Shown: positions 1 through 53,145 of the stretch, piece by piece | Position numbering within the stretch: the first letter of the stretch is position 1 | How the letters are laid out: each line of letters opens with the position of its first letter | Source of the DNA: Shigella phage 2019SD1 | DNA length: 53,145 nucleotides | Direction: 5' to 3' (one strand) | Sequence record: MT360681 | Made by a program: the position numbers and the translations under genes | Notes under the pieces: generated by a model | What the model saw: only the letters and a program-made list of their open reading frames with translations | Database searches by the model: none | What the model was told of the DNA's origin: nothing

Positions 1-178
1 CGGTAACGTGTTTAAAACGGAATCACGAATCGTTAAGGCTGACGGCTATAATGAGATCTTTAAGGGCGAGAATTGCAAATCGCGAGTAGAGCAACCATTC
101 TACATGCAATCAATGCCATACAAGACTCTTGCTGACTTTTACGAAAAAGATGGCACGGCAAAAGGGTTATTGACGGCA

Positions 179-1375
179 GATGAGGCGGCATTCCGTTCCT
201 TGTGGGATGAGAAGCGACTCAATGCAAAAATTATTGATGCGCTTTGTTGGTCGCGTTTGTTTGGTGGATCTGCAATCATTGCTCTTGTTCAGGATGGGCG
301 AGCGCTCAAATCACCTGTAAAGCCCGGTGCCATGCTGGAAGATGTGCGCGTTTATGATCGTTATCAGATTCGCGTTGAAGCGCGCGAAACTAATCCCCGC
401 AAGGTTCGCTATGGTGAGCCAGTGCTTTACACTGTAACGCCGGTGGAGACTTGCCGGAATACCGGTACACTACACGCGAGTTTGCATTATCGATGGGCAA
501 CGCAATTATTGCGGCGGAAGCAGCAGGCAGTATGGAAAGCTAAAGGACTCGCTGACTTGTGCGATGATGAGGAAGGTGTTAGCGCGGCACGCCTGAGACT
601 TGCGCAGGTTGACGATGAGGGTGGAGTAGGCAAGGCTATTGGTATTGATGCTGAGGATGAGGAATATGATGTTCTTAACTCCGACATTAGCGGAGTTGAT
701 TCTTTCTTGAAAAGAAAATGGATCGCATTGTTTCCCTTTCAGGTATTCATGAAATCATCCAGTAAATCACGAATCGTTAAGGCTGACGGCTATAATGAGA
801 TCTTTAAGGGCGAGAATTGCAAATCGCGAGTAGAGCAACCATTCTACATGCAATCAATGCCATACAAGACTCTTGCTGACTTTTACGAAAAAGATGGCAC
901 GGCAAAAGGGTTATTGACGGATCGCATTGTTTCCCTTTCAGGTATTCATGAAATCATCCTGAAAAATAAAAACGTTGGCGGCGTTAGCGCAAGCCAAAAC
1001 ACGGCGCTTGAAACATTCTATAAACTTATTGAGCGAAAACGCGTTGAGGATTACAAGCCTATTCTTGAATTTCTATTACCGTTCATCATTAGTGAGCAGG
1101 AGTGGAGCATTGAGTTTTCACCTTTGAGCGTGCCTAGCGATAAAGATCAGGCTGAAATTCTGAATAAGAATATCGACTCAATCAGCAAGGCTATTGATGG
1201 TCAGTTCCTTGATGTTGAAGAAGCGCGAGACACGTTGCGAGCAATCGCCCCAAGCGTTAAACTAAAGGACACTAATAAAATCAAGCTGCCGGAGCCAGCG
1301 GAGCCGGAGCCGAGCACACAGGGAATGAGTAGACGCTTTACGGTCAATGGCACGGCCTTGCAGAGTCATCGCTAA
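179..1375 (+). CDS. Portal protein (probable); 5' end wraps to about 53035 at window end; carries a 156-bp displaced duplicate insert at 765-920
   Basis: Long ORF directly downstream of large terminase and upstream of MuF-like head gene; acidic C-terminal tail typical of portals; window positions 1-178 are mosaic copies of other regions. Confidence 0.45.
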   Translation, partial: DEAAFRSLWDEKRLNAKIIDALCWSRLFGGSAIIALVQDGRALKSPVKPGAMLEDVRVYDRYQIRVEARETNPRKVRYGEPVLYTVTPVETCRNTGTLHASLHYRWATQLLRRKQQAVWKAKGLADLCDDEEGVSAARLRLAQVDDEGGVGKAIGIDAEDEEYDVLNSDISGVDSFLKRKWIALFPFQVFMKSSSKSRIVKADGYNEIFKGENCKSRVEQPFYMQSMPYKTLADFYEKDGTAKGLLTDRIVSLSGIHEIILKNKNVGGVSASQNTALETFYKLIERKRVEDYKPILEFLLPFIISEQEWSIEFSPLSVPSDKDQAEILNKNIDSISKAIDGQFLDVEEARDTLRAIAPSVKLKDTNKIKLPEPAEPEPSTQGMSRRFTVNGTALQSHR

Positions 1376-1395
1376 GGAAGTTATTCACAAATATT

Positions 1396-2103
1396 GTGAA
1401 AGTGAAGGGCGTTGTTAAACAATGGCGCTTTCCTGAAGCAAGCGAGCGGCAACTTAGCCGCTCAATTCAGGAGGCAATCAGAGATCTTGTAATTCTCATG
1501 CGCAAGCGAACAAAAGCGATGAAGTTTGACGCAACAGATAATGAGATCAACAGCGCAGAAGATGAAATTAACAGCGGCAACAAATTAACAGCGGCAACTG
1601 ACCTTATAGCTGGCATTGTTTCCACTCTTCCTGCAATCGCGTTGACCATTTATAAATTCAATGCGAAGCAGTTTATCAATGTTGCCAAGTCAACAGGCGG
1701 AAAGGATAACACGGCGGTAATTGTTTTGATCGCGATTGGCGCTAACGCTAACGAGGTGGTATCTGACTGGTCAACAAACATTCGCAATGCAAACTTTCGC
1801 GGAAGCAATGATAAACAGGTTAATGATCTTGCAGAAAAGAGATTTGCTGTTTATAGCTCTTGGGGTAAAACGAGATCAGAAAACATTATCGGCGCGTGGA
1901 ATAGTCGCCTGATGCGCCAGCGCCTTTATGATGCTAAGGTGACTCATTATTTCTGGCATGGAATGTTAGATGATAGAGAGCGCTTGCAGCATGTGTTATG
2001 GGAAGGAAAAAGAATATCGCTTGATGCAATTCATGATTTCCACGGTGAGCCGTGGGGTTGCCGTTGCTGGGCGATTCCAGATTGGAATAATAAAGGAGAG
2101 TAA
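1396..2103 (+). CDS. Head morphogenesis protein (Mu F / SPP1 gp7-like minor head protein)
   Basis: Position after portal; C-terminal region with conserved Cys pair (..GEPWGCRCWAIPDW..) as in MuF-like proteins. Confidence 0.4.
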   Translation: MKVKGVVKQWRFPEASERQLSRSIQEAIRDLVILMRKRTKAMKFDATDNEINSAEDEINSGNKLTAATDLIAGIVSTLPAIALTIYKFNAKQFINVAKSTGGKDNTAVIVLIAIGANANEVVSDWSTNIRNANFRGSNDKQVNDLAEKRFAVYSSWGKTRSENIIGAWNSRLMRQRLYDAKVTHYFWHGMLDDRERLQHVLWEGKRISLDAIHDFHGEPWGCRCWAIPDWNNKGE

Positions 2104-2118
2104 TTAAAACTAAAGTCG

Positions 2119-3384: not shown

Positions 3385-4069
3385 TTAAGCCGATGGCGGC
3401 AAGCGGCAAGGCTTACGGTGTTGCAATTCGATCCCACTTCCAGACGACTTCGGCTGACGGTCGAATGATTTATGAATCTGGCAGCGGAATCAACGTAATG
3501 ACTGAGGGCGTGTTTGGATGCGTTACGGTCAGGTTTCTGACACTTCAGCTTATAATATTGATGGCGCTTGTGTTCTTGAGAATGCAGCAGGCAACCAGAA
3601 CAAAAACATTTTTGTTGGTGTTGCAGTCCAGCATGGCGGCGTTGATGAAGGCAAAACAAAGATTTTGGCTAAAGACGCTTCCGCGCCAGCGTTCGGCGCT
3701 ACAATCAAACTTTCTGATGATGGTCAGGTTGATACCGCGTCTGGCACTATCGAAACCAACTGGATCGCGACTGGTGATTTCACCGAGTTTCAAGACTTGA
3801 AGCTGGTAGAGGTTCAGGTGCAAAAGTTCCGGCAGTTTCAGCAGGTTAATAAATATGGCGCTCACTTGGCTAAAGACGCTTCCGCGCCAGCGTTCGGCGC
3901 TACAATCAAACTTTCTGATGATGGTCAGGTTGATACCGCGTCTGGCACTATCGAAACCAACTGGATCGCGACTGGTGATTTCACCGAGTTTCAAGACTTG
4001 AAGCTGGTAGAGGTTCAGGTGCAAAAGTTCCGGCAGTTTCAGCAGGTTAATAAATATGGCGCTCACTGA
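3369..4069 (+). CDS. Head-associated protein (hypothetical; possibly decoration protein); frame change near 3515 and tandem ~214-bp duplication at C-terminus
   Basis: Two overlapping ORFs 3369-3800 and 3518-4069 that read as one protein if a 1-bp indel is assumed; 3662-3876 repeated at 3877-4069. Confidence 0.3.
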
Positions 4070-6125: not shown

Positions 6126-6569
6126 ATGGTTGATGAATTTTTCACTGACGCAGAAATCACGCAGCAAATCGTGAAATTGGCGCCACCGATGAAGCAGATT
6201 GATCCAGATTTAATGGAGGCATGGATTGATCTTGCAAAGGAATTTGTTTGCAAGAAGCGGTTTAAAGAATCATATCCCAAAGCGGTTGCTCTTTATACGT
6301 TGCACCTTATGACGCTTGACGGAGCGATGAAGCAAGAAGGGAAAGCGGTTGATGAATTTTTCACTGACGCAGAAATCACGCAGCAAATCGTGAAATTGGC
6401 GCCACCGATGAAGCAGATTGATCCAGATTTAATGGAGGCATGGATTGATCTTGCAAAGGAATTTGTTTGCAAGAAGCGGTTTAAAGAATCATATCCCAAA
6501 GCGGTTGCTCTTTATACGTTGCACCTTATGACGCTTGACGGAGCGATGAAGCAAGAAGGGAAAGCGTAG
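6126..6569 (+). CDS. Hypothetical head-tail connector-like protein; exact tandem 219-bp duplication (6129-6347 and 6348-6566)
   Basis: ORF with 73-aa unit repeated twice in frame. Confidence 0.3.
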
Positions 6570-7130: not shown

Positions 7131-7816
7131 CACGATAAGGAATTTCACGGCAACATTGATGCGTGGATAAACGCCGTTGATAATGGCCTGAAAGATTGCG
7201 TGGAGTTGTTCGCCGAAAAGTACACACAGATTTGGTTAAGCGTTCTCCGGTTGATACTGGTCGTTACCGTGCAAACTGGCAGGTAACAGCAAACAAGCCG
7301 CCATTGTATGCGCTTAACCAGTACGATAAGCACGGCGACAAAACTATCGCGGAAGGAAAGCGCGCCATATACGCGATTTTACGAGTTAAGCGTTCTCCGG
7401 TTGATACTGGTCGTTACCGTGCAAACTGGCAGGTAACAGCAAACAAGCCGCCATTGTATGCGCTTAACCAGTACGATAAGCACGGCGACAAAACTATCGC
7501 GGAAGGAAAGCGCGCCATATACGCGATTTTACGAGGTGGTGGCGCAGTAAGAGCCATTTATTTTTCTAACATGCTTATTTATGCTAACGCGCTTGAGTAC
7601 GGTCATTCAAAACAAGCGCCAGCGGGTGTACTTGGGATTGTAGCGGTTAAGTTGAGATCTTATATGGCTGAAGCAATAAAAGAGTCGAGGGCTAAAATGC
7701 ACTATGAATTAATGCTATCGGCGCGTAAAGCGCTGGCGACTGAATACGAAAGCAGATTCATGATCGCTTATGAGAACGTAGAGTTTACGCCACCGGTGAC
7801 GGTTCGCCGTGGTTGA
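7090..7816 (+). CDS. HK97 gp10-like tail/neck component; exact tandem 150-bp duplication (7235-7384, 7385-7534)
   Basis: Motif ..VDTGRYRANW.. and ..IYANALEYGH.. resembling HK97 gp10 family; N-terminus in a different frame suggests indels. Confidence 0.4.
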
Positions 7817-8268
7817 AGTTTGACTATGCCGAAGTTGACACAGAATACTTGTCATTGGATCGCAAATGCGTTTCTTATATTGGAATGATTCAGGTTGGCA
7901 TTGTGTTTCCACCGGTTACGGAACTGACAGGCCGCGCGTTCTCGCTAAAGAGATTGCGCAATTCTTTTACGATGGTAAAATGCTGGAGCATGGTTATATA
8001 TATGAGGGTGCAAGAGTTCACAAGCCGCTCAAGAGTGAAAGCGGTTGGCTTCTCCTGCGTTTCTTATATTGGAATGATTCAGGTTGGCATTGTGTTTCCA
8101 CCGGTTACGGAACTGACAGGCCGCGCGTTCTCGCTAAAGAGATTGCGCAATTCTTTTACGATGGTAAAATGCTGGAGCATGGTTATATATATGAGGGTGC
8201 AAGAGTTCACAAGCCGCTCAAGAGTGAAAGCGGTTGGCTTCTCCTGTAAGATTTTATGTTCGAATTGA
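7813..8268 (+). CDS. Hypothetical tail completion / terminator-like protein; tandem ~189-bp duplication (7866-8054, 8055-8243); reading frame ambiguous
   Basis: Two overlapping ORFs in different frames both span the duplicated unit. Confidence 0.2.
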   Translation: MKFDYAEVDTEYLSLDRKCVSYIGMIQVGIVFPPVTELTGRAFSLKRLRNSFTMVKCWSMVIYMRVQEFTSRSRVKAVGFSCVSYIGMIQVGIVFPPVTELTGRAFSLKRLRNSFTMVKCWSMVIYMRVQEFTSRSRVKAVGFSCKILCSN

Positions 8269-9632: not shown

Positions 9633-12286
9633 CGCTTGGGGTTGATGTATCTCAACTCAACAATGCTGTAAAGTCTTTGCAGCAATTCAAAAAGGCAAAC
9701 GACGACGCAAAGGGAAGCGTTGAGAACTTTGTTGATTCAGAGGTTGTTGCAAGGCAAAGAGCTAAACAATTGGCTGAGGAATTGGCGAAGCAGAAACAGG
9801 AATTTAAAGCAATTCAGTCTGCAATAGATCCAACAGCCAGCAAGATGGATAAGTTGCGTCAGGCTGCGACACAGCTTGATGCACTATGGAAAAAGGAATT
9901 GTGCCGGATGATACATTCTTTGAATCCGGATGATACATTCTTTGAATTAGGTTCAATTCTTGAGACACAGCAAAACAAGCTGATCGCAACGAAAAAGGCG
10001 CTAACAGAAGAAGGCCGAGCGGCGATTGAGGAAGCAAAGAATAAAGCGGGGCAGAGGCTGAGGCCAGAAAGTTCATTGCGGCATTACAGGCACAAGCAGA
10101 CGCAGCGGAAAAACAAAATCAGAGCTTGTAGAAATGAGAGCCGCACAACTTGGAGTAGAGCCGCACAACTTGGAGTTAGTGCTGAGGCAGCGCCATTTAT
10201 TGCAAAAATGAAGGAGCAGGAAAAACAAGCCTCAAAACTTGGCGTTTCTATGGGGCAGTACAAGCAAGCAATGGCGCAATTACCAATGCAGATCACTGAC
10301 GTTGTTACTTCTCTTGCTTCAGGAATGCCAGTATGGATGGTCGCAATCCAGCAGGGTGGACAGATCAAGGACTCATTCGGTGGTGTTGCGAATACGTTCA
10401 AAGCACTAATGACATTTGTCACGCCGTTAAGTGTAGGAATGACGGCGCTGACTGGTGCTCTTGGTTATGCTGCATATAATGCATACAAAACAAATGCACA
10501 ACTGAAGGAGATCACAAAACCGTTCAGGGGTAACTGGTCTTTCTGGTCAGAACAATACGCAGGCTTGACGCTTGGGGTTGATGTATCTCAACTCAACAAT
10601 GCTGTAAAGTCTTTGCAGCAATTCAAAAAGGCAAACGACGACGCAAAGGGAAGCGTTGAGAACTTTGTTGATTCAGAGGTTGTTGCAAGGCAAAGAGCTA
10701 AACAATTGGCTGAGGAATTGGCGAAGCAGAAACAGGAATTTAAAGCAATTCAGTCTGCAATAGATCCAACAGCCAGCAAGATGGATAAGTTGCGTCAGGC
10801 TGCGACACAGCTTGATGCACTATGGAAAAAGGAATTGTGCCGGATGATACATTCTTTGAATCTGCAATTTGCGAAGAACACCTATGAGGATATAGGAAAG
10901 ATCGTAAAAGATGCGAATAAGGATATGGCGGAACGAGCAGCACGCATCGACAGAGAAAACCTTTCCTTAAACAGAGTTCGAGCGGCGCAAGAGGCTTTAA
11001 ACAAAGCCATAGAGGATCAGAAGAACGTAGCAAGGACAGCAGACGAAGAGTTGAAAAACGAGCGGCTGAGAACGTTGAGTTCAGGCGAAAAGAGCTTGAA
11101 GAGGCGAAGAAGGCGCAGCAGCAAAGGAGAAAGTTGGCGGAGTTGTAAAAGCACCAACAGAGCAGCTGCAAAAGAAAAGGCCGAGATAGGCGATCAGATT
11201 GTTTTGCAACAGAGAAAGAACAAGCAATACCGGACGGGCTTAAATTCATTCAGCAAACTTCAGATGCCATTGATGCTAAACTTGCGACAGTCTGGAGCTA
11301 CAGATATGCAAATCAAGCGAGAGCTTGAGTTGAAGAAGTTGCGAACTGATTATGTTGCTGGCGGGGTAGTATCGACGATGAAATTTATCAGCAGATGGAA
11401 GCAAAGCGATATGTACGGCAACGTGCAAGATATTGCAAGCGAGGCGCTCAACGGTCTAACCAACCAAATGGCTACATTCCTTGCAACAGGCAAGGCGAAC
11501 TTTAAGAGCTTCGCAACGTCAATCATCCAAATGATTATCCAGATGATCACGAAGATGGTTATCTTTAATGCCATATCTGGTGCGATTGGCGGTGACACTT
11601 GGACGATTGGAAGCCTTCTTAAAATGTTGGATTTGCAACTGGTGGATACACTGGCGACGGCGGGAAGTATGAGCCAGCAGGTGTTGTCCATAAAGGCGAG
11701 TTTGTCAACGAAGGAGGCCACGAAGCGGATCGGAGTTGGAAATCTTTACAAAATGATGCGCGGTTATGCAAATGGCGGCGTTGTTGGTGGCACTTCATAC
11801 ACTGGCGGCGGAATTTCATCAGGAGCAACAAACCTTAATATTGGTGGGATTAGCGTTGATATTAACAACGGAAACGATCCAAAAGGGTTGGAGACTGGCG
11901 TAAAAATGATTTTCACTGATATGATTAAGCGTTCCTGTACGCAGGGTGGGGAAGTTTACGAATTTGTTATGTCTAAGCGGGGTGATAGTGAAACTACGAA
12001 GGAGGCCACGAAGCGGATCGGAGTTGGAAATCTTTACAAAATGATGCGCGGTTATGCAAATGGCGGCGTTGTTGGTGGCACTTCATACACTGGCGGCGGA
12101 ATTTCATCAGGAGCAACAAACCTTAATATTGGTGGGATTAGCGTTGATATTAACAACGGAAACGATCCAAAAGGGTTGGAGACTGGCGTAAAAATGATTT
12201 TCACTGATATGATTAAGCGTTCCTGTACGCAGGGTGGGGAAGTTTACGAATTTGTTATGTCTAAGCGGGGTGATAGTGAAACTTGA
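9608..12286 (+). CDS. Tail tape measure protein; contains displaced duplicate (9612-9925 = 10548-10862), tandem 288-bp C-terminal duplication (11708-11995, 11996-12283) and short tandem repeats near 9900 and 10140
   Basis: 892-aa ORF with hydrophobic segment ..[21 protein letters not shown].. typical of tape measure proteins; position after chaperone genes. Confidence 0.7.
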
Positions 12287-12930
12287 GCAATTCAAATGGT
12301 GCACGCAAACGCAAGGAGGCGGCGGCACTATGACCACATCAAATAACGACAGGAAATCTCATTTGGTAATGGTTACACGCAGGTTGCTTCAGGAGGGTTT
12401 AACACGGTACGCAGGGAGTTTTCCATTGTCTATGTTGGCAAGGATTACAGAGACGTTGTTGACTTCCAAACTTGAGCAATTCAAATGGTGCACGCAAACG
12501 CAAGGAGGCGGCGGCACTATGACCACATCAAATAACGACAGGAAATCTCATTTGGTAATGGTTACACGCAGGTTGCTTCAGGAGGGTTTAACACGGTACG
12601 CAGGGAGTTTTCCATTGTCTATGTTGGCAAGGATTACAGAGACGTTGTTGACTTCCTGAATGGACACAGGCTGAAGCCGTTTTATGGTTTATGCCTGACG
12701 GTCAACCCGGTCTATTCAGGGTAAAATCTGGTAGCGTTGGATTAACTCCAATATCAGCAACCGTTCAGGAAGTGAAAGCAACATTTACTGAGCAATTTAC
12801 ATCAATGCAACCTGACGGTCAACCCGGTCTATTCAGGGTAAAATCTGGTAGCGTTGGATTAACTCCAATATCAGCAACCGTTCAGGAAGTGAAAGCAACA
12901 TTTACTGAGCAATTTACATCAATGCAATAA
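12234..12930 (+). CDS. Minor tail protein (lambda M-like, tentative); two tandem duplications (12282-12470/12471-12659 and 12694-12810/12811-12927)
   Basis: Position between tape measure and L-like gene; split into two ORFs each made of an exactly repeated unit. Confidence 0.3.
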
Positions 12931-12990: not shown

Positions 12991-13752
12991 ATGGCTAATG
13001 AAACAACAGGTCGCGCAGACCTTGAAAATTGTCTGCAAAGCCTTTACCCCGGCGAGATTATCACGCTAATTGAGATTGACGGCACAAAGTTTGGCGCAAA
13101 CATTTACCGCATACACAATGAGAACATCTCATACACTGCGGAAGAATTATTGCAGGCGCGAGAAACTGGAGTTCTTCCGCCGAAAGAGATTACATTCCGT
13201 GGCGAGGTTTACGGCGCGCGCCCGTTCGGAATATCTGGAATCAACTTCACAAGCAACGGAAAGGCTGATAAGCCACAATTGATACTATCAAACCTTGATA
13301 GCCAAGTGAGCGCGATGATTCGCAACTTTAACGGCATGATGCAAGCTAAGGTTACAATCTGGATCACGCCAGCGGAATTAATGGGGAAAGATGGCAGCAT
13401 TAAAGATGGAGCCTCAAGAAAGCTGGTTTACTACATTGAGCGCCCAAGCCATTACAATAGAATGATGGCGAAATTTGACCTGACATCGCCTTATGATATG
13501 GATGGAATAATGATTCCTCCGCGAATAACTCAAAGCGTTTGTTATTGGGCGCAGCGTGGATGGTATCGAAGCGGAAAGGGTTGCGGATACAATGGATCGC
13601 GAATGTTTGACAAAGACAACAATCCTGTAACCGATCCATCTCAAGACTTTTGCGCCGGAACTGTAACAGCGTGCAAACTTCGTTTTGGTGCAGATCAGCA
13701 GCTTGATTTTGGCGGTGCACCAGTAGCAAGCCTGTTAAGGAGAAATCAGTGA
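12991..13752 (+). CDS. Minor tail protein L
   Basis: AAGGAGGTG RBS plus ATG at 12991; C-terminal Cys-rich segment CGYNGSRMF..CAGTVTACKLRFG resembles lambda gpL. Confidence 0.65.
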   Translation: MANETTGRADLENCLQSLYPGEIITLIEIDGTKFGANIYRIHNENISYTAEELLQARETGVLPPKEITFRGEVYGARPFGISGINFTSNGKADKPQLILSNLDSQVSAMIRNFNGMMQAKVTIWITPAELMGKDGSIKDGASRKLVYYIERPSHYNRMMAKFDLTSPYDMDGIMIPPRITQSVCYWAQRGWYRSGKGCGYNGSRMFDKDNNPVTDPSQDFCAGTVTACKLRFGADQQLDFGGAPVASLLRRNQ

Positions 13753-13795
13753 AGAGGGTTTTGTTGAAACAGGAGAGCCGCCAAAACACGGTGAC

Positions 13796-14464
13796 ATGAT
13801 TAGTGCAAAAATAAAACTTGAAATAATGCAGCACGTAAAGATGAATACCCGCGCGAGGCGTGCGGTGTTATCACTCAAAAATCACGCGTGCAAAAATACC
13901 ACCGCACATGATGATCCTGAAAACCATTTCGAGATGGACGCAATTGAATACGTTGAGGCGTGTGAAAGTGGCGAGCTTATTGCTGTTGTACATAGCCACA
14001 CTGGAGACGGTGCAAGTACAATCCCAAGCGCCCATGATACATGCATGTGTGATGAAATGGGTGTTTCATGGGTTATTGTGTCATGGCCAGAAGGTGATAT
14101 GAGAATCATTGAGCCTGAATCTCGTCCACTGATTGGTCGCCCGTGGTCGCTTGGTGCTTATGATTGCTGGGGGCTTATTATGGCATGGCACAAGCAACAT
14201 GGCGTTATCCTAAATGATTTCAGGAAACCATATGAATGGTGGAAGCCTGAGCACGGTGAAAATCTTTACCGGAAAATTATCGTTATCTTTCAGCTTTCCG
14301 CGCCAGTGTGGAATCATGCAGGCATTTATCTTGGCAACAATCAATTGCTTCATCATGCCTCTGGCAAGTTGTCAAGGGTTGATTTGTATTCTGGATGGTA
14401 TCAGGAACATGCAAAAATGGTTTGTAGACATAAGGATCTGAAATATGACTTTGAAGGTAATTAA
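13796..14464 (+). CDS. Tail assembly protein K (JAB/MPN plus NlpC/P60-like)
   Basis: ..AVVHSHTGDGAS..SAHD.. JAMM-like motif and downstream Cys/His residues; position between L and I. Confidence 0.65.
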   Translation: MISAKIKLEIMQHVKMNTRARRAVLSLKNHACKNTTAHDDPENHFEMDAIEYVEACESGELIAVVHSHTGDGASTIPSAHDTCMCDEMGVSWVIVSWPEGDMRIIEPESRPLIGRPWSLGAYDCWGLIMAWHKQHGVILNDFRKPYEWWKPEHGENLYRKIIVIFQLSAPVWNHAGIYLGNNQLLHHASGKLSRVDLYSGWYQEHAKMVCRHKDLKYDFEGN

Positions 14465-27516: not shown

Positions 27517-27535
27517 GCGAAAGTAGCAGTGACAT

Positions 27536-33806: not shown

Positions 33807-34997
33807 ATGAGATGGACAATCACCACTCGCGACAAAGAACAGCTAGAAGCATTAATGCAGGCCGCTATGGATGCATTTAGCGAAGAAGTTCCGCGACTTG
33901 ATCCGCAACCGGAATCACAAAAGGATTATAGCGAGACGTTATCACTGTATCCGATCTTTGATATGCACCGGGCGCAATGGCGCATAAGCATGAATGCGGC
34001 GAGAACTGGGATACAGCAACAGCAGAGCGCGAATAATTTCATTGATTATTCCATCCAGTGCGCGCCGGATAGCGAAAAGGCTGTTTTGCTGATTGGTGGT
34101 GACATGCTGCATAGTGACGGCACGGAAGCGGTGACACCTGCAAGCGGTCACGTATTGGATCAAGATAGTCGATACGCAAAACTTGTTTATGTTGCCATCC
34201 GGTCAGTGCGTCGAGCAATAGCAAAGCTGTTATCAAAACATAAAACGAGATGGACAATCACCACTCGCGACAAAGAACAGCTAGAAGCATTAATGCAGGC
34301 CGCTATGGATGCATTTAGCGAAGAAGTTCCGCGACTTGATCCGCAACCGGAATCACAAAAGGATTATAGCGAGACGTTATCACTGTATCCGATCTTTGAT
34401 ATGCACCGGGCGCAATGGCGCATAAGCATGAATGCGGCGAGAACTGGGATACAGCAACAGCAGAGCGCGAATAATTTCATTGATTATTCCATCCAGTGCG
34501 CGCCGGATAGCGAAAAGGCTGTTTTGCTGATTGGTGGTGACATGCTGCATAGTGACGGCACGGAAGCGGTGACACCTGCAAGCGGTCACGTATTGGATCA
34601 AGATAGTCGATACGCAAAACTTGTTTATGTTGCCATCCGGTCAGTGCGTCGAGCAATAGCAAAGCTGTTATCAAAACATAAAACGATCTGGTTGCGCGCA
34701 GCAATGGCGGCAGCATATGAGAATGAGCCGCGAGTGCATGTTGATGTTTCTCCGCGAGTAGTTCATCACACGCAATATGGCAAAACATTCCCGCATACCA
34801 TCATCTGGTTGCGCGCAGCAATGGCGGCAGCATATGAGAATGAGCCGCGAGTGCATGTTGATGTTTCTCCGCGAGTAGTTCATCACACGCAATATGGCAA
34901 AACATTCCCGCATACCATCATGGGCACACTATCCGCAAACCTGAAACATTGGCGGCAAAGATGCATACGCTGCGCGCGAGTACATAGCACTATATAA
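33807..34997 (+). CDS. Hypothetical protein; exact tandem 438-bp duplication (33810-34247, 34248-34685) and 117-bp tandem duplication (34686-34802, 34803-34919)
   Basis: 396-aa ORF composed largely of repeated units. Confidence 0.3.
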   Translation: MRWTITTRDKEQLEALMQAAMDAFSEEVPRLDPQPESQKDYSETLSLYPIFDMHRAQWRISMNAARTGIQQQQSANNFIDYSIQCAPDSEKAVLLIGGDMLHSDGTEAVTPASGHVLDQDSRYAKLVYVAIRSVRRAIAKLLSKHKTRWTITTRDKEQLEALMQAAMDAFSEEVPRLDPQPESQKDYSETLSLYPIFDMHRAQWRISMNAARTGIQQQQSANNFIDYSIQCAPDSEKAVLLIGGDMLHSDGTEAVTPASGHVLDQDSRYAKLVYVAIRSVRRAIAKLLSKHKTIWLRAAMAAAYENEPRVHVDVSPRVVHHTQYGKTFPHTIIWLRAAMAAAYENEPRVHVDVSPRVVHHTQYGKTFPHTIMGTLSANLKHWRQRCIRCARVHSTI

Positions 34998-36280: not shown

Positions 36281-36324
36281 TGCTTGAAAATAATCCTAAA
36301 TGAACACTCTTACCTTTATCATAT

Positions 36325-36978
36325 ATGGTTGCATGCCATTTTTTCTTTCTTCCTCCAGCACACCCCTATTCCATTGTCATATATAAATATTTTATTCCAA
36401 TCGATTGGAATAAAATATTTATATATGACAATGGAATATTGTGGGAAATGCACAATGGAAAAATACCAGAAGGAATGGAGATAGATCATATATGGCACAA
36501 TAGGTGGGATAACAGGATTGAAAATTTAAGGCTTGCATCAAGATTAGAGAACAGCAAAAACGTATCTCTACTAAAAAGAAATAAATCTGGTAGGGTTGGG
36601 GTGTGCTGGAGGAAGAAAGAAAGGTGGAGAAACAGAAGGGGAAAAGCAAAGCACGGAAGCGTTGCTGGATGTGTAGATAAAAATGGCTATGTAAGAATAA
36701 GGTATAATGGTGTATTGCTTTTGGCACATAGGATAATATGGGAAATGCACAATGGAAAAATACCAGAAGGAATGGAGATAGATCATATATGGCACAATAG
36801 GTGGGATAACAGGATTGAAAATTTAAGGCTTGCATCAAGATTAGAGAACAGCAAAAACGTATCTCTACTAAAAAGAAATAAATCTGGTAGGGTTGGGGTG
36901 TGCTGGAGGAAGAAAGAAAAAATGGCATGCAACCATATACATATCTTTTCCTTAGAGCTTTTATTTGTTGTCTATTAA
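36325..36978 (+). CDS. HNH homing endonuclease with AP2-like DNA-binding domain; internal ~180-297-bp duplication (36442-36620 approx = 36739-36917)
   Basis: ..NGYVRIRYNGVLLLAHRIIWEMHNGKIPEGMEIDHIWHNRWDNRIENLRLASRLENSKN.. classic HNH motif; ..KSGRVGVCWRKK.. AP2-like. Confidence 0.65.
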   Translation: MVACHFFFLPPAHPYSIVIYKYFIPIDWNKIFIYDNGILWEMHNGKIPEGMEIDHIWHNRWDNRIENLRLASRLENSKNVSLLKRNKSGRVGVCWRKKERWRNRRGKAKHGSVAGCVDKNGYVRIRYNGVLLLAHRIIWEMHNGKIPEGMEIDHIWHNRWDNRIENLRLASRLENSKNVSLLKRNKSGRVGVCWRKKEKMACNHIHIFSLELLFVVY

Positions 36979-36996
36979 CATTTGACGTAAACAGTT

Positions 36997-37500
36997 CTTC
37001 ATCGCTCATTTCTCCGATCCGTAAAACATCCCTAACCCATTCGTTTTGCATACCTTCCGGGCTGTAAAGTTCAAACGAGAAAGGTCGATTTGCGGATCCT
37101 TTCTTACACCAGAACTTTCCATCAACTCCATCTGCTGCATTCAGGAACTGAACTGAGCGAGCAATGTTGCGCGCCAACTTTCCAACAACATCAACATCAT
37201 TGCCAAGAGAAATTACAGGGTAGCGATCATTTCCGTTATTAACATCATTAACCTCACCCCAAAAGCTGGACGATTGACGGTATCCGTTTGCCTGAATGGA
37301 CACGCGCACCGGAGACAATCCTTGTGCATCAGCTAATTCGATAATTTGTTTTGGTGTTAGTTTGTTGGTTTCAAACGAAAAATTCGAGTTGATGGAAAGT
37401 TCTGGTGTAAGAAAGGATCCGCAAATCGACCTTTCTCGTTTGAACTTTACAGCCCGGAAGGTATGCAAAACGAATGGGTTAGGGATGTTTTACGGATCGG
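36997..37500. repeat. Fold-back structure: ~95-bp perfect inverted repeats (36997-37090 and 37405-37500) flanking a ~315-bp segment that codes on the minus strand
   Basis: 37405-37500 is the exact reverse complement of 36997-37090; best reading frame of the enclosed segment is on the minus strand whereas the continuing gene is on the plus strand. Confidence 0.8.
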
Positions 37501-38747
37501 AGAAACTTGGACGCTTCACGGTTGAGTATCACGGAACGGATCAGCCGACCGCTCTTTATGTTGTCACAAGCCAGCCTCCTTCAACTGGTAAATCTGCCGT
37601 TAACAGCCCGGCACTTGCTCCAATGGTTGCAGAAGTAGAAAGAATTAACGATCAGCGAAAGAAGGAAAGAAAAAGATTCAGGCAAAGTTGGCAGGTCTTG
37701 CAAAAGAGACTTGGACGCTTCACGGTTGAGTATCACGGAACGGATCAGCCGACCGCTCTTTATGTTGTCACAAGCCAGCCTCCTTCAACTGGTAAATCTG
37801 CCGTTAACAGCCCGGCACTTGCTCCAATGGTTGCAGAAGTAGAAAGAATTAACGATCAGCGAAAGAAGGAAAGAAAAAGATTCAGGCAAAGTTGGCAGGT
37901 CTTGCAAAAGAGAAGCAAAACATACATTAGCGCCGCCAACGCTTCTGGCTATGCTGGTGATGATGCTGAAATGGGTAAACTAATCGAGATCATCACTCGA
38001 CACGGCAAGGCTAATAAGGGGATCTTGAATGTGCGCGCCATATATGAGGCTGCACGAAAAGTTAAGCCGTTTGTTGGTCAGGCTGGCGTAATGAAGCGTA
38101 TGGAAACGCAACTGCTGCCGATGCTTGAAGAAAGAAATTATATTTGTGTGATTAATGGCGTTGTTTTTGTAAATCCAACATTGCTGGGGAGTGAATCAAA
38201 CATCCAGCTTAAGATCAGCAAATCAGCAATGCGAGTTCTTAACATGGCTCGTCAGGAGATGGAACCGCACCTTGCTGATGGAGGAAAGTATTCGCATACA
38301 ATGCTGCGCGGCGCGCTTGGCAAAATGGATAAGCAGGTGATCAGGATTGCTTCAGTTTTGCACACTATCCGCAACTGGTTTAATCGGCGGATACCCTCAA
38401 AAGTCGAAAGAGATCTGAAAGCATGGGATCACGGTCATGTTTCTATAGCTCGTGCAAACGCTGACAACAATATGAGTTTTAAAGCTCTTGGCTGTATGGC
38501 GGTAATTGCCCGTGATGAAACAATCAATGCCATCATGGATGCAGGATCGCGCGGTATCGGTGTGAGTGAGCGTTATTTGCTTGTGCGTGAGGAATCATTT
38601 TGTGACATCGTTTTCCCTGTGTCCGACACCACGCCGGAAGGACTTGCAAGAATCAACAATCGCCGGGGTAACTTTGCTGTGATTTCAGACGAGGCAACGA
38701 GTATTAACAGCCTTATTGATGATAACTCCTTTTTGATGCGGCAATAA
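37500..38747 (+). CDS. Putative replication protein with P-loop-like motif (primase/helicase-type, tentative); tandem 204-bp duplication (37506-37709, 37710-37913); native N-terminus probably lies in the inverted segment upstream
   Basis: ..VVTSQPPSTGKSAV.. Walker A-like; long ORF in replication region. Confidence 0.3.
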   Translation, partial: EKLGRFTVEYHGTDQPTALYVVTSQPPSTGKSAVNSPALAPMVAEVERINDQRKKERKRFRQSWQVLQKRLGRFTVEYHGTDQPTALYVVTSQPPSTGKSAVNSPALAPMVAEVERINDQRKKERKRFRQSWQVLQKRSKTYISAANASGYAGDDAEMGKLIEIITRHGKANKGILNVRAIYEAARKVKPFVGQAGVMKRMETQLLPMLEERNYICVINGVVFVNPTLLGSESNIQLKISKSAMRVLNMARQEMEPHLADGGKYSHTMLRGALGKMDKQVIRIASVLHTIRNWFNRRIPSKVERDLKAWDHGHVSIARANADNNMSFKALGCMAVIARDETINAIMDAGSRGIGVSERYLLVREESFCDIVFPVSDTTPEGLARINNRRGNFAVISDEATSINSLIDDNSFLMRQ

Positions 38748-43631: not shown

Positions 43632-44774
43632 TTGTGGTGCTTAAGCGTGGATAACATCAAGTATCCGATCACGTTCCACACGGTTGGTAACTCAACTATT
43701 CGATTCACATCTCGCGACAATGGCGTTTATAGCGACGGTCAGAAATCAGAGTTGAAAGTTGATTTCTTTGTCAATGGTCACAACAAATTCAATCCGCACA
43801 ACGAAAAAGATAAGGTGTACTACGTGGAAGATATTACAAAACACTTGTTTGGCGAAACTCCATTCGGCGGCGGGAAGACGTCAATTCAACAAATCATTGA
43901 CGATCAGATCCGCAAGGCAGCCGTTGAAATGAAAGCGCCCGGAGGCTGGCGTATTGATAAGGGCGCCTTTACCATTCAAGAAATCGTAACGCAGGGCGCG
44001 ATTGAAGACATGCCGCTTGGCGCTTCAATCATCGGCATCAAAGACGACAACGGCGACTGGCAGGATGTTTCATTCCTGTTAAGCAGATCGAAGTACACGA
44101 CGACCTGTTTTGCCTCCCGGCGCATCATGGCAGCTACAAGGGCAAAGCCTTTGCCGCAGAGCTTGACATCAAGCGCGGAACGATTGTTAAGTGGAAGGCA
44201 AAAGTGTAAAGATAACATCAAGTATCCGATCACGTTCCACACGGTTGGTAACTCAACTATTCGATTCACATCTCGCGACAATGGCGTTTATAGCGACGGT
44301 CAGAAATCAGAGTTGAAAGTTGATTTCTTTGTCAATGGTCACAACAAATTCAATCCGCACAACGAAAAAGATAAGGTGTACTACGTGGAAGATATTACAA
44401 AACACTTGTTTGGCGAAACTCCATTCGGCGGCGGGAAGACGTCAATTCAACAAATCATTGACGATCAGATCCGCAAGGCAGCCGTTGAAATGAAAGCGCC
44501 CGGAGGCTGGCGTATTGATAAGGGCGCCTTTACCATTCAAGAAATCGTAACGCAGGGCGCGATTGAAGACATGCCGCTTGGCGCTTCAATCATCGGCATC
44601 AAAGACGACAACGGCGACTGGCAGGATGTTTCATTCCTGTTAAGCAGATCGAAGTACACGACGACCTGTTTTGCCTCCCGGCGCATCATGGCAGCTACAA
44701 GGGCAAAGCCTTTGCCGCAGAGCTTGACATCAAGCGCGGAACGATTGTTAAGTGGAAGGCAAAAGTGTAAATAG
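43632..44774 (+). CDS. Hypothetical early protein; exact tandem ~561-bp duplication (43650-44210, 44211-44771); C-terminus frame-disrupted
   Basis: 380-aa ORF consisting of two identical 187-aa units. Confidence 0.35.
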   Translation: MWCLSVDNIKYPITFHTVGNSTIRFTSRDNGVYSDGQKSELKVDFFVNGHNKFNPHNEKDKVYYVEDITKHLFGETPFGGGKTSIQQIIDDQIRKAAVEMKAPGGWRIDKGAFTIQEIVTQGAIEDMPLGASIIGIKDDNGDWQDVSFLLSRSKYTTTCFASRRIMAATRAKPLPQSLTSSAERLLSGRQKCKDNIKYPITFHTVGNSTIRFTSRDNGVYSDGQKSELKVDFFVNGHNKFNPHNEKDKVYYVEDITKHLFGETPFGGGKTSIQQIIDDQIRKAAVEMKAPGGWRIDKGAFTIQEIVTQGAIEDMPLGASIIGIKDDNGDWQDVSFLLSRSKYTTTCFASRRIMAATRAKPLPQSLTSSAERLLSGRQKCK

Positions 44775-45836: not shown

Positions 45837-46133
45837 GTGGTTAATAAAGTTGAGTTTTTCAAAGCGGTAGAAAAGATTGACGGCGCGCCAAGTTTCTTTG
45901 CTATCCATTCCATTGACGGCGAAGACGTTGCATACAACGTGATTAGTCGAGACGGTATATCAAAACTTAGCGACCGGTGGGTTATATTGTGGCGAACGGT
46001 AAATGTGCATGGCGGTTATATTGTGGCGAACGGTAAATGTGCATGGCTAGATTCGCAACTAGAGCCGCGCCGCCGCGACATGCAAAATCCAGTTCTGCTT
46101 TACACGCTGGTAATTGAAGGAGTCAACAAATGA
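45837..46133 (+). CDS. Hypothetical protein; 41-bp tandem repeat at about 45968-46049
   Basis: GTG start after ACGAGGA RBS. Confidence 0.35.
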   Translation: MVNKVEFFKAVEKIDGAPSFFAIHSIDGEDVAYNVISRDGISKLSDRWVILWRTVNVHGGYIVANGKCAWLDSQLEPRRRDMQNPVLLYTLVIEGVNK

Positions 46134-46397: not shown

Positions 46398-46946
46398 ATG
46401 TTTGATATTGCATTCTCAATGCTTGGCGTTTACCGATATGACGAGTTCATTGATCTGTATTTTGATATTGCATTCTCAATGCTTGGCGTTTACCGATATG
46501 ACGAGTTCATTGATCTGTATAACGACCGCGAGCAGAAAGAAAAGCCTCAAGCAATCTTGCAAGGAAAGTCGCCGCGCCAGTTCATGATCTGGATTAGCGA
46601 AGAAGTCATGAAGCCAGCTTTTGGCGAGCAGTATTTCGGAAATCGCATGGTTGAGCAAGTGCACGAGATGTACAGAGATTTGGCTGTTGTAATTAGTGAT
46701 GGCGGATTCACTGAAGAAATCAAGCCGCTCATTAAGGCAGGCCATGAAGTTCACATTTGCAGACTGCATCGCGAAGGTTTTACGTTTGATGGCGATTCGC
46801 GAAACTATATTGACCTGAGCGGATACCATCACCGAGTAAAACATTACGACTTCACAATGATTGATGGCGATCCAGAAAAACTGTTGACGAGATCATCAAA
46901 ACTATCCAGTGGAAACACATTAAGATCAAATAGCACGAATTGCTAA
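46398..46946 (+). CDS. Hypothetical protein; 63-bp tandem duplication at N-terminus (46398-46460, 46461-46523)
   Basis: ORF; stop embedded in promoter motif 46928-46949. Confidence 0.3.
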   Translation: MFDIAFSMLGVYRYDEFIDLYFDIAFSMLGVYRYDEFIDLYNDREQKEKPQAILQGKSPRQFMIWISEEVMKPAFGEQYFGNRMVEQVHEMYRDLAVVISDGGFTEEIKPLIKAGHEVHICRLHREGFTFDGDSRNYIDLSGYHHRVKHYDFTMIDGDPEKLLTRSSKLSSGNTLRSNSTNC

Positions 46947-49110: not shown

Positions 49111-49111
49111 A

Positions 49112-51520: not shown

Positions 51521-51523
51521 AAC

Positions 51524-51589: not shown

Positions 51590-52982
51590 AATGAGCGAAT
51601 ATTCATTCGAAAAGATGATCCGCATTTGGTTTCAACTTCTCGGGGCAAAGGTTCTTAGGAAACTGGCATTTCAGTTACCTATGCAGCGAAGTGCAGGAGC
51701 TATGGCCGGAAAGCTGGCAAAGGCGAGCGCAAAGGACTTGATTGTAACCGATGTCGGCAAGGTTAAATTGCAAGTTAACTCGCGTTCTATCGGTGGTCAG
51801 GTTACTGGTCTGCGTGGCGGCTACATGGATGATGGATTTACTGGTATGCTGGTTCTTGATGATCCAGACAAGCCGGATGACATGCTTTCTAAGGTGAAGC
51901 GCGAAGCCGGACACATGCGCCTAAAGAACACGGTGCGATCACGTCGAATGAAGGACACAACGCCAATCGTAATGGTCCAGCAACGGCTACACGTCAATGA
52001 TTCAACATGGTTCATGACAAACGGCGGCATGGGCGGCATCCAGTTTAAGGTGGTCAGTATTCCGGCGCTCGTTACTAAGGAATATCGCGAAACGCTTCCT
52101 GATTGGTTAAAGCCTGAGTTTGATCGCGATGTTTTATCCAGTAAGCCAGTAATGATTGATGGTGTTGCTCATTATTCATTCTGGCCTGCTAAGAAAGCGC
52201 GGAGGAATTACTTGCACTTCGAAATGCTGATCCGTACACGTTCGCCAGTCAGTATCAGCAACAGCCTGTTGCGCTTGGCGGTAACGTGTTTAAAACGGAG
52301 TGGTTTCAGTATTACGGCAGCAGCGAGAAATGCACGCTACCAAAACCGGATCGCTTTGAGTATACATTTATCACGGTTGATACCGCGCAGAAAACGGGTG
52401 AGCTTAACGACTACTCCGTATAAAGATCGCGTTTACTTCATTGATGGTGTTCGCGGAAAATGGGAAGCACCAGACCTTGAAACTAATTTTGTTGCGTTCG
52501 TTAATCAGTGCTGGAAGCGTAATAAAGAATGCGGAACGTTGCGAAGGATTCATGTTGAAGATAAGTCATCTGGCACTGGCTTGATTCAGAGCGCAGCGAA
52601 AAAATTATATAAAGATCGCGTTTACTTCATTGATGGTGTTCGCGGAAAATGGGAAGCACCAGACGAAACTAATTTTGTTGCGTTCGTTAATCAGTGCTGG
52701 AAGCGTAATAAAGAATGCGGAACGTTGCGAAGGATTCATGTTGAAGATAAGTCATCTGGCACTGGCTTGATTCAGAGCGCAGCGAAAAATTATGATCAAG
52801 ATCAATCCCGTTCAGCGAGACTGGCTGAGATACTCGCTGAAGTTGCGGCGTTCACATTCGATGATTCGCATCCTCATGATGATATTGTTGATAACATCAT
52901 TGATGCTGTTAACATTGAAATGAACATGGCAGATGATCCGGTAGGAAGAATGAAAAAATTGGCAGGTTTGCGGAACAAATAA
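51590..52982 (+). CDS. Terminase large subunit (N-terminal region uncertain; internal frame change near 52195; 180-bp tandem duplication 52425-52610 approx)
   Basis: ..ADPYTFASQYQQQPVALGGNVFKTEWFQYYG.. and C-terminal ..FTFDDSHPHDDIVDNIIDAVN.. typical of terminase nuclease domain; Walker A-like ..SRGKGS.. only visible in a shifted frame near 51600. Confidence 0.55.
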
Positions 52983-52985
52983 TCA

Positions 52986-53012
52986 AAGGCTGGTAAATCC
53001 AGCCTTTTTATT
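52986..53012 (+). terminator. Rho-independent terminator after large terminase
   Basis: AGGCTGG-TAAAT-CCAGCCT followed by TTTTATT. Confidence 0.6.
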
Positions 53013-53034
53013 GAGGAAAGATATACCAGAGGAA

Positions 53035-53145
53035 ATGGTTTCCCGGCTTTACTGTTGACGGCGTGGCAGATGAGGCGGCATTCCGTTCCTTGTGGGATGA
53101 GAAGCGACTCAATGCAAAATTATTGATGCGCTTTGTTGGTCGCGT
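53035..53145 (+). CDS. Portal protein N-terminal segment (continues at position 179 after wrap)
   Basis: ATG at 53035 after AGGAAAG-like RBS and terminase terminator; downstream sequence identical to 179-255 apart from one A-run length difference; the frame needs a 1-bp correction. Confidence 0.35.

Follow-up and report, generated by a model that had tools for sequence, protein, structure and literature searches.

Background

The closest relative of the DNA analysed here is Shigella phage pSf-1 (NC_021331), type phage of the genus Hanrivervirus (Drexlerviridae, Tempevirinae). Systematic consensus errors of Oxford Nanopore (ONT) sequencing have been described as homopolymer deletions and errors at the Dcm motif CCWGG (CCAGG/CCTGG) (Wick, Judd and Holt 2019, PMC6591954). 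Both bear on Shigella phage 2019SD1 (MT360681), whose 53,145 nucleotides are called the window below. An earlier reading of the sequence alone (the sequence-only reading) had considered the window full of exact tandem, displaced and inverted duplications that are not natural, and had offered as causes either an assembly or amplification artefact (chimeric reads) or a synthetic or perturbed sequence. We conclude that the window very probably derives from the draft genome of a real phage, whose letters were rearranged as text once the contig had been assembled and its genes called. The repeats do exist in the sequence; they are software-made, however, and without biological meaning, i.e. not a real feature.

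Results

Substrate phage and sequencing errors

Alignable parts of the window are 92-95% identical to pSf-1 at the nucleotide level (112 HSPs; about 110 alignment blocks). Coverage of the window was 87% at 94.8% identity in the first 25 kb and 63% at 92.6% in the next 25 kb, and most of the 94 pSf-1 proteins were detected by tblastn. Where checked, differences were mostly synonymous: the gp79 protein is 100% identical, its DNA about 92%. The window lacks a counterpart for about 9 kb of pSf-1; the window segments absent from pSf-1 (24850-26184 in the tail-fibre region, 36208-36950, 39364-40145, 46948-47299 and 49040-49471) are ordinary mosaicism. After undoing the edits, the gene order is that of pSf-1. 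Identity together with shared gene content and order places the substrate in Hanrivervirus, at genus level only, the text being edited and error-laden. A tRNA scan of the window found none.

Compared with pSf-1, the window carries 170 one-base deletions and 21 one-base insertions. Deletions affect 33% of 5-mers, 84% of homopolymers of at least 6 nt and 41 of 92 CCWGG (Dcm) sites; genes are thereby broken into frameshifted ORF fragments. Such deletion-biased errors at homopolymers and CCAGG/CCTGG are those of an unpolished ONT consensus, and the substrate has the same profile as the published one. Judged from its sequence, the substrate is a real Hanrivervirus-like T1 phage (Drexlerviridae) in the form of an unpolished nanopore-type consensus. 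This nature of the substrate, with its homopolymer and Dcm-site deletions, had been overlooked in the sequence-only reading. Both copies of duplicated blocks contain identical consensus errors, and the ORFs used as edit units include error products, namely fragments of gp70, gp73, gp78, SSB and gp5.

The draft contig also retains an untrimmed terminal overlap: a segment recurs at the two ends of the contig in versions that differ independently in consensus, with unequal homopolymer lengths at the same locus. The overlap itself is partly scrambled, as block 21-176 is absent from the end copy and re-inserted after an ATG at 765-920.

Repeats and their absence from relatives

In an exact k-mer scan of the whole window, as the sequence-only reading had proposed, exact repeats of at least 40 nt spanned 14,362 of 53,145 positions (27%), versus just 92 positions (0.2%) in pSf-1; the asserted abundance of duplications is thus real. 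There were 55 maximal exact direct repeats of at least 20 nt, about 30 of them at least 60 nt long, and 21 exact inverted repeats with arm lengths including 80, 109, 114 and 120 nt; 23844-24003 is a palindrome of 160 nt without loop. Of 26 pairs listed previously, 21 were 97-100% identical at the coordinates given. The other five are real with positions off by a few bases: the pairs noted as 3662/3877, 46398/46461, 2262=3170 and 39225=39911 lie at 3665-3865/3866-4066, 46401-46460/46461-46520, 2257-2457=3166-3366 and 39223-39326=39908-40011, respectively, and 51258-51520=52796-52980 is a composite (51257-51286=52791-52820, 51369-51505=52821-52957 and 51501-28=52954-81) with an 82-nt gap and a homopolymer difference of 1 nt. 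All 18 tandems of 60-561 bp had periods in multiples of three (3n), and only four short ones (20, 22, 31 and 34 bp) did not, in agreement with the remark that units are mostly 3n. The statement that copies show no divergence holds nearly everywhere, except in the terminase region, where a 3-nt gap and runs of A5 versus A6 set the copies apart. The duplications are matched in number by deletions, transpositions and in-place inversions, which the sequence-only reading had missed.

The suggested comparison with the nearest reference phages gave single copies: the 561-bp unit at 43650-44210 was present once in 91 of 91 related phages, and the window aligns to the closest relatives in 37-40 separate pieces each. 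None of the tested junctions occurred in any relative or public contig searched. One junction-spanning probe was absent from IMG/VR, and one plain probe from IMG/VR, metagenome collections and GTDB genome collections. Exact-protein look-up of two window ORFs returned no record, the mechanical start of one probably not being the called gene start.

Junctions coincide with START and STOP codons

At nearly all rearrangement junctions, the codon just before the STOP of one ORF is followed directly by the codon next to the START of another, and the moved ORF bodies are in their own sense orientation, 3n and stop-free. Ten of the 18 tandem units were STOP-adjacent, ten START-adjacent and seven both. 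Random-placement and codon-aligned nulls gave means of about 2, 2 and 0.1, and the observed values were reached in 0 of 20,000 trials. All four non-3n tandems read START-X-X-STOP, as predicted ahead of the test. Unambiguous tandems were codon-aligned in seven of eight cases; the 318-bp tandem (25271) is out of codon register with the open frame around it. Microhomology at tandems was no more than expected by chance (0-6 nt, mostly 0-2).

The same was observed relative to pSf-1. Among 87 junctions of abutting blocks (tolerance 1 nt; inverted blocks included and read in their own orientation), STOP followed the left block in 54, START preceded the right block in 64, and both applied in 41; null means were 20, 23 and 7.5, and the observed values were reached in 0 of 3,000 trials. 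About one third of junctions have no START or STOP in pSf-1, which would in part be expected with only 92-95% identity and some regions lacking a homologue. Internal deletions of at least 11 nt corresponded exactly to STOP...START in pSf-1 in 8 of 12 cases, 2-nt TG losses were located at ATGA/GTGA, and spacers that were cut out turn up directly upstream of the START of the chain. Displaced and inverted copies were mostly uninformative when tested against ORF edges of the final window, because later edits alter ORFs, while the test against pSf-1 worked.

All seven blocks tested in the J-like chain were 3n and stop-free. The parent reconstruction of this gene, and with it the re-derived ORF list, is approximate, skipped stretches being filled from pSf-1, which is without the errors of the parent, and for this reason the exact edit order and duplication rule are not reproducible. 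The window has open frames of 1219, 907 and 741 codons, against a mean of 499 and a maximum of 619 for pSf-1 after simulated nanopore-type deletions. No recombination-site sequence recurred at junctions in the exact-repeat catalogue of the window, the sole dispersed repeat being a natural 20-nt motif also found in pSf-1. Edited features are collected in Table 1.

Table 1. Edited, duplicated, inverted and overlapping features of the window
Feature	Position	Strand	Structure
Untrimmed terminal overlap, one side	1..256	+	1-21 = 52279-52299 (mid-terminase); 175-256 = 53065-53145
201-bp tandem, two copies	3665..4069	+	End flush with TGA
gp70 first fragment	6126..6569	+	ATG, body 6129-6347, same body 6348-6566, TAG; premature stop after 1-nt deletion at 6338
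150-bp tandem, two copies	7232..7534	+	TTG, units 7235-7384 / 7385-7534
Artefactual ORF in tail-terminator gene gp73	7866..8249	+	ATG, body 7869-8057 twice, TAA; ATG out of frame until CC[A]GG deletion at 7914
Chimeric tape-measure ORF chain, 892 aa	9608..12286	+	Fusions, re-inserted copy, TG losses, tandem
Tape-measure chain, first body	9611-9926	+	Copy re-inserted at 10547-10862
Tape-measure chain, overlap fusions	9904-9947; 10137-10176	+	GTG, 22 nt, 22 nt, TAG; ATG, 20, 20, TAG
Tape-measure chain, TG losses at ATGA	11279, 11708	+	
Tape-measure chain, 288-bp tandem	11708-11995 / 11996-12283	+	Upstream of TGA
gp78 fragment 1	12276..12659	+	GTG, body 12279-12467 twice, TGA; 26 true codons, then out-of-frame tail past deletion at 12352
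gp78 C-terminal fragment, start = internal Met	12691..12930	+	ATG, body 12694-12810 twice, TAA
gp80 chain	13752..14464	+	STOP..START spacers gone: 11 nt (at 13907), 50 nt (at 14282); 50-nt spacer now at 13752-13795, in front of ATG 13796
Chimeric J-like tail ORF chain, 1206 aa	15117..18771	+	Relocated 41-nt spacer (15117-15150), GTG 15151, then stop-free 3n blocks
J-like chain, blocks		+	A' (to 15432), B' 15433-15867, B' 15868-16302, 16303-16911, 16912-17166, 17167-17304
J-like chain, spurious minus-strand ORF body	17305-17439, again 17440-17574		Rest of chain after
Truncated SSB fragment	22410..22841	+	ATG, body 22413-22625 twice, TGA
gp92 C-terminal block	23716..24003	.	Flipped copy adjoining unflipped; loop-less palindrome, arms 23844-23923 / 23924-24003
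Tail-fibre region	24936..27494	+	318-bp tandem 25271-25588 / 25589-25906; 600-nt-offset repeat 26295-26837 = 26895-27437; 61-nt copy 26236-26296; 109-nt inverted arms 24936-25044 / 26060-26168
Primase (minus strand in pSf-1)	27535..28607	.	Frameshift fragments 27649-28002, 28003-28362, 28363-28476 flipped in place to + sense; additional unflipped copy 27535-27648 (114-nt inverted repeat); 35-nt overlap duplication; N-terminal 44 codons remain antisense
276-bp tandem	30652..31206	+	End flush with TAA
Truncated gp5 fragment	31299..31808	+	ATG (AGGAG RBS), body 31302-31553 twice, TAG
DNA repair exonuclease gene	33807..34921	+	ATG, 438-bp unit twice (33810-34247 / 34248-34685), then 117-bp tandem (34686-34802 / 34803-34919)
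HNH/gp16/helicase region	36322..38747	.	Helicase fragments flipped to + sense, chained as 483-aa ORF 37296-38747; inverted repeats 37009-37128 / 37386-37505 and 36322-36366 / 36895-36939; direct repeat 36442-36622 = 36739-36919
Helicase 204-bp tandem	37506-37709 / 37710-37913		In 483-aa ORF
Largest tandem, 561 bp	43647..44774	+	GTG, body 43650-44210 twice, TAG
Overlap fusion	45977..46050	+	GTG, 34 nt, 34 nt, TAG
60-bp tandem, two copies	46398..46520	+	Preceded by ATG
Scrambled large-terminase chain, 584 aa	51228..52982	+	C-terminal fragment first (51258-51551), N-terminal second; 204-nt gap vs pSf-1 (68 codons missing); one fragment in two versions, 52419-52607 (A6) and 52608-52820 (A5 + 3-nt gap); TAA..ATG spacer of 82 nt removed

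Discussion

A proposed model of annotation-aware text editing

The START/STOP-flush junctions bear out the earlier view that the duplications are not natural and that biology in the window is untrustworthy. They also support the second of its suggested causes, a synthetic or perturbed sequence, and not the first, since junctions fall on START and STOP of predicted ORFs, positions that reads, polymerases and overlap-based assemblers have no means of knowing, and blocks are joined without overlap. The model that we propose has two steps. First, as the error profile and contig ends show, a Hanrivervirus-like T1 phage was assembled from nanopore reads with no polishing; loss of single bases from homopolymers and from Dcm (CCWGG) sites cut most larger genes into short frameshifted ORFs, and the contig retained about 1 kb of untrimmed terminal overlap. 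Second, as the junction anatomy shows, a program, whose involvement we infer, holding a list of predicted ORFs repeatedly took an ORF body (everything from the first codon past START to the last before STOP, read in the sense of that ORF) and copied or moved it to just after a START, either that ORF's own or one belonging to a neighbouring ORF no more than about 2 kb away.

Depending on source and target, different products arise: i) with the same ORF as target, an in-frame tandem START-body-body-STOP; ii) with the next downstream fragment as target, a fusion losing STOP...START, the old spacer staying ahead of the chain; iii) with a target overlapping the source, START-X-X-STOP, i.e. the 20-34 nt tandems; iv) with a minus-strand source, an in-place inversion or inverted repeat; and v) with the original kept on copying, a displaced repeat. 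As no block contains a stop or departs from 3n, the chains appear as very long, though chimeric, ORFs. Many ORFs exist only through sequencing errors, and therefore the editing came after consensus calling and gene calling. The 3-nt gap between the terminase copies is not accounted for by the edit rule alone and requires the two-version terminal overlap.

The edits may represent a deliberate perturbation (a decoy, or simulated gene fusions and duplications) or a pipeline bug. That the scrambling stems from an assembly or annotation "repair" pipeline in actual current use, and not from a deliberate decoy, appears very improbable.

Two other procedures were considered and rejected. Simple concatenation of extracted genes does not fit, as internal junctions are without START/STOP, yet intergenic sequence and START/STOP at chain ends are kept. 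A protein-guided assembler (Plass/PenguiN-like) requires overlap of joined pieces, while the blocks abut without any; this was judged by reasoning only.

Alternative explanations

A generative sequence model (genome language model) that had memorised T1-like phages could have copied, looped and jumped by mistake without closing ORFs. Autoregressive generators typically fail by producing exact repeats and loops, ORFs in the window are open, and an identical source was not found in the public collections probed. To our knowledge, there is no agreed defining feature of such output at the sequence level, and the argument against this origin, which we regard as very improbable, is made indirectly, from the error signature and the rule-like junctions. 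The substrate carries a physical-sequencing signature (41/92 CCWGG sites, 84% of homopolymers of at least 6 nt), and largely synonymous changes separate it from pSf-1 in the parts checked (gp79 protein 100% at about 92% DNA). Junctions are START/STOP-flush, blocks are exact reverse complements of minus-strand ORF bodies, and cut spacers are conserved and relocated; such behaviour is rule-like, not stochastic.

A wet-lab or assembler artefact would comprise multiple-displacement amplification chimeras, chimeric or palindromic nanopore reads, or blocks wrongly joined or duplicated by an assembler or polisher of the long-read or protein-guided kind. In favour of it, the sequence beneath the edits is plainly a raw assembly of nanopore reads, its terminal overlap left untrimmed, and amplification chimeras do yield inverted duplications and loop-less palindromes. 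However, chimeras and overlap-based assemblers are blind to START/STOP positions and could not produce 3n periods in 18 of 18 tandems; blocks are joined without overlap, tandem microhomology stays at chance level (0-6 nt, mostly 0-2), and both copies carry identical consensus errors. Instead of the arbitrary, annotation-independent junctions, usually at shared sequence or microhomology, that mis-joins would leave, 54, 64 and 41 of 87 junctions were at STOP, START or both (null 20, 23 and 7.5), making this origin extremely improbable.

We give almost no credence to a genuine rearrangement, i.e. recent in-frame duplication and recombination in a viable phage or defective particles with the frame kept by selection. 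T1-like phages do encode Erf/RecE-type recombination functions, the long tandem periods are all 3n and long ORFs are open. Selection could impose 3n length, but not START/STOP-flush breakpoints, and the boundaries are those of ORF fragments made by sequencing errors. Natural breakpoints would be independent of codon phase and START/STOP, whereas 7/8 tandems were codon-aligned and 10/10/7 of 18 flush (STOP, START, both). Neither presence in relatives nor compatibility with function was found: 91/91 relatives are single-copy at the one junction checked directly, the closest relatives align in 37-40 pieces each, and about 9 kb of pSf-1 lack a counterpart. Essential genes are scrambled, with the terminase C-terminus moved to the front and 68 codons missing, primase and helicase fragments inverted and antisense sequence inside the J-like gene.

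Physically engineered DNA, such as SCRaMbLE-like site-specific shuffling or a synthetic construct with shuffled ORFs, subsequently nanopore-sequenced, would yield gene-unit deletions, duplications, inversions and translocations, but may practically be discounted, as junctions carry no recombination-site scar or shared sequence instead of a recombination site each, the sole dispersed repeat is natural, and the units are error-defined ORF fragments nonexistent in physical DNA.

Significance

With text editing as the preferred reading, the window is relevant only as quality control, and any biological claim from it is unsafe. Its long ORFs, repeats, palindromes, "domain duplications", gene fusions and inverted segments represent text editing atop sequencing errors and are unfit for reporting as biology or for seeding protein or RNA family searches. 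The breakpoint test (flush on START/STOP, including error-made ORFs) is a cheap, general diagnostic by which in-silico edits made with knowledge of the annotation can be told from natural duplications as well as from chimeric reads or assemblies. If the "repair" pipeline reading were true, public databases could contain further phage genomes corrupted in this manner, their ORF bodies fused, duplicated and flipped, and tallies of "novel" phage proteins, multidomain or repeat-containing, could be inflated.

Comparison with known systems

Published ONT consensus errors account for the frameshifts only; they leave repeats of 60-600 bp, inversions and transpositions unexplained. Natural in-frame tandem duplications of phages, arising by slippage or illegitimate recombination, share head-to-tail 3n copies extending ORFs with the window, whose breakpoints, in contrast, are START/STOP-flush even in error-made ORFs, with identical copies that are absent from relatives and disrupt essential genes. 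Amplification and long-read chimeras and untrimmed circular-contig overlaps have in common with the window loop-less palindromes, inverted repeats and a two-version terminal overlap; this class fits the terminal overlap only, the other junctions being 3n and defined by ORF boundaries. As for in-silico simulation of structural variants or gene fusions, or decoys built on annotated ORFs, we found no specific published tool, and assignment to a particular program or purpose would be inference. In such procedures ORF bodies are likewise copied or moved to ORF boundaries, and ORF openness and local composition are likewise kept.

Repeats and rearrangements relative to pSf-1

An exact-match scan and repeat search confirmed that repeats pervade the window, as a sequence-only reading had claimed: 55 maximal exact direct repeats of at least 20 nt were detected (about 30 of them at least 60 nt long), together with 21 exact inverted repeats, including arms of 80-120 nt. 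Among the 26 pairs listed in that reading, 21 showed 97-100% identity at its own coordinates; for the remaining five the repeats exist, but their coordinates are shifted by 3-5 nt or the pair is composite. Its statement that most tandem units are multiples of three also held, the period being divisible by 3 in all 18 tandem duplications of at least 60 bp, with only four short tandems (periods of 20, 22, 31 and 34 bp) as exceptions. One loop-less palindrome reaches 160 nt (Table). Two more loop-less perfect palindromes were noted, which are most likely of the same kind, that is, a flipped ORF piece beside its unflipped copy and not natural hairpins.

The window is not merely duplicated but scrambled. 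BLAST alignment to pSf-1 (NC_021331), the nearest relative, divided it into approximately 110 blocks separated by 49 forward skips, 40 backward jumps and 20 orientation switches, with no jump of any kind exceeding 2.1 kb. Altogether, about 5.4 kb were inverted, about 6.3 kb were used twice and about 9 kb of pSf-1 had no counterpart. The rearrangements affect essential genes. In the large terminase, the C-terminal piece is placed first and 68 codons are absent; fragments of the primase and helicase are flipped one by one, and an antisense ORF body is present twice in the J-like tail gene.

Features of the window and of the ORF units used in editing
Feature	Position in the window	Remark
20-nt motif copies	31922, 32970, 39293, 39978, 41469, 42137, 43225, 48524	39978 is an edit-made copy
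Loop-less palindrome	23844-24003	160 nt
Loop-less palindrome	25104-25157	arms about 27 nt
Loop-less palindrome	36367-36438	arms about 36 nt
J spacer, 41 nt	15117-15150	before GTG 15151
gp80 spacer, 50 nt	13752-13795	before ATG 13796
Terminal overlap	175-256 = 53065-53145; 1-21 = 52279-52299	spans 1-256 and 52279-53145
One-base deletions at CC[A/T]GG (examples)	7795, 7914, 14271, 17106, 29609, 42226
No nucleotide match to pSf-1	24850-26184, 36208-36950, 39364-40145, 46948-47299, 49040-49471
ATG-7866 ORF within gp73	7866	in frame only after CC[A]GG deletion
gp70 fragment 1		premature TAG after 1-nt deletion
gp78 fragment 1		tail out of frame
SSB fragment		truncated
gp5 fragment		truncated

The underlying phage

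The substrate, a T1-like siphovirus, belongs to the genus Hanrivervirus (Drexlerviridae) and is 92-95% identical to pSf-1. Its substitutions look natural (e.g. the gp79 protein is 100% identical at about 92% DNA identity). Stretches without a nucleotide match to pSf-1 comprise the distal part of the tail fibre, an HNH endonuclease that has diverged from gp17 (about 54% amino-acid identity), small early genes and the region of the methyltransferase; they look like ordinary T1-like mosaic variation, set in an edited text that bars interpretation. The annotation of pSf-1 itself looks uneven, with several adjacent ORFs named 'tail length tape measure protein' (gp75-77, L002 9186-12526 of the pSf-1 sequence) and what may be a split structural gene (gp62/gp63, L002 1211-2490), and its gene boundaries therefore call for caution.

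A 20-nt motif of natural origin, AATAGCACTTTT(T)GTTAAAAC, is dispersed mostly between small early genes and has 11 sites in pSf-1 (L001/L002). Its copies appear oriented in the same way as the neighbouring genes, two plus-strand copies carry a CATAAT box 22 nt after TTGTTA, and chance would produce no copies (100 shuffles gave 0 matches). The motif probably represents an early promoter or regulatory site conserved among Hanriverviruses.

One junction probe and one plain probe both remained without a hit in IMG/VR, the plain probe had no match in metagenome and GTDB genome collections either, and two window proteins that were looked up were not on record.

Consensus errors and the ORFs they created

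The pattern of one-base indels relative to pSf-1 (170 deletions, 21 insertions) does not look natural. Affected were 33% of homopolymeric 5-mers and 84% of 6-mers, and one-base deletions were present at 41 of 92 CC[A/T]GG sites. Errors at homopolymers and Dcm sites are the published signature of Oxford Nanopore consensus sequences left unpolished when the enterobacterial DNA is Dcm-methylated (Wick et al. 2019, PMC6591954), and the substrate of the window carries this signature. The deletions at CC[A/T]GG indicate Dcm methylation of the phage DNA that was sequenced; it could stem from the host (E. coli/Shigella) or from a Dcm-like methyltransferase of the phage itself. Such a methyltransferase is annotated in relatives, e.g. 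KarlJaspers. As a result of the consensus errors, conserved genes are frameshifted every few dozen codons.

A terminal overlap was also left in the contig, reaching from the middle of the terminase as far as the following structural gene. Its two versions are independent consensus sequences with different homopolymer lengths (A5 vs A6), so at least some length differences are errors. Pieces from both contig ends were mixed during editing, which suggests that the ends were handled as neighbours.

Many ORFs serving as edit units owe their existence to consensus errors alone (Table). The editor thus worked from a consensus that already contained the errors, and from the genes called on it. The starts used are not the first starts of the open frames and resemble the choices of a gene caller (ATG 31299 with AGGAG upstream; GTG 12276, the true gp78 start). 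Because ORF bodies, i.e. the codons between START and STOP, were chained into long frames, open frames of 1219, 907 and 741 codons survive about 190 frameshifting indels; in pSf-1 with simulated nanopore-type deletions, the longest frame was about 500 codons (maximum 619).

Breakpoints at START and STOP codons

Seven of the 18 tandems of at least 60 bp have exactly the structure START-body-body-STOP, three further ones stop flush before STOP and three others start flush after START, counts never matched in 20,000 trials with random or codon-aligned placement. For the tandems with periods not divisible by 3, we predicted that overlapping frameshift fragments were joined as A-without-stop plus B-without-start, and all four subsequently proved to be START-X-X-STOP. 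Under the same model, deletions are expected to be STOP...START segments; of the 12 internal deletions of at least 11 nt, eight are precisely this in pSf-1, and 2-nt 'TG' losses coincide with ATGA/GTGA overlaps.

About a third of the junctions are unverifiable on pSf-1 since it is not the true parent. Among 87 abutting junctions, the left block is followed in pSf-1 by STOP in 54, the right block is preceded by START in 64, and both apply to 41 (tolerance 1 nt; inverted blocks were counted, read in their own orientation). Null means were 20, 23 and 7.5, respectively, and the observed values were never attained in 3,000 trials. All seven tested blocks of the J chain have lengths divisible by 3 and contain no stops. 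Spacers cut from the chain interior turn up immediately 5' of the START codon of the chain in J and gp80 (Table), and likewise in gp3, exonuclease VIII and endolysin.

Origin of the rearrangements

Together, the tandems, deletions, junctions, blocks and spacers define one elementary operation, in which the body of ORF X is copied or moved directly behind the START codon of ORF Y. A tandem duplication arises when Y is X itself, and a fusion when Y is the next downstream fragment. An X overlapping Y has the overlap duplicated, and an X on the minus strand gives an inversion or inverted repeat. Although the repeats do exist in the text, they are no genuine feature of the phage's biology, and the earlier warning against trusting them as biology was right in substance. 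Their value lies solely in a quality-control flag and in a simple way of diagnosing in-silico edits made with knowledge of the annotation.

Of the causes put forward previously, a perturbed sequence, altered either deliberately or through a bug, is the correct one, given that breakpoints are tied to START/STOP codons. A generative language model could create loops and leave ORFs open, yet it is very unlikely as the source, since it explains neither the physical signature of errors at Dcm sites and homopolymers nor the flush START/STOP junctions, exactly reverse-complemented ORF bodies and relocated spacers. Chimeras from amplification, nanopore reads or the assembler, also suggested previously, account for the terminal overlap and nothing beyond; this suggestion was wrong, and we give it slightly less credence still, as reads, polymerases and overlap-based assemblers are blind to START/STOP codons and gene calls, whereas the blocks are joined at such codons without shared overlap. 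Engineered site-specific shuffling would have left a site scar, which is absent, and its probability is negligible.

Just as improbable are genuine biological rearrangements: selection can impose lengths divisible by 3, but not breakpoints flush with START and STOP, and many of the units are ORFs created by consensus errors. Editing of the text in silico also agrees with the comparison with related phages proposed in the sequence-only reading, as exact repeats of at least 40 nt make up 27% of the window and only 92 nt in pSf-1, and the 561-bp unit is present as a single copy in 91 of 91 relatives.
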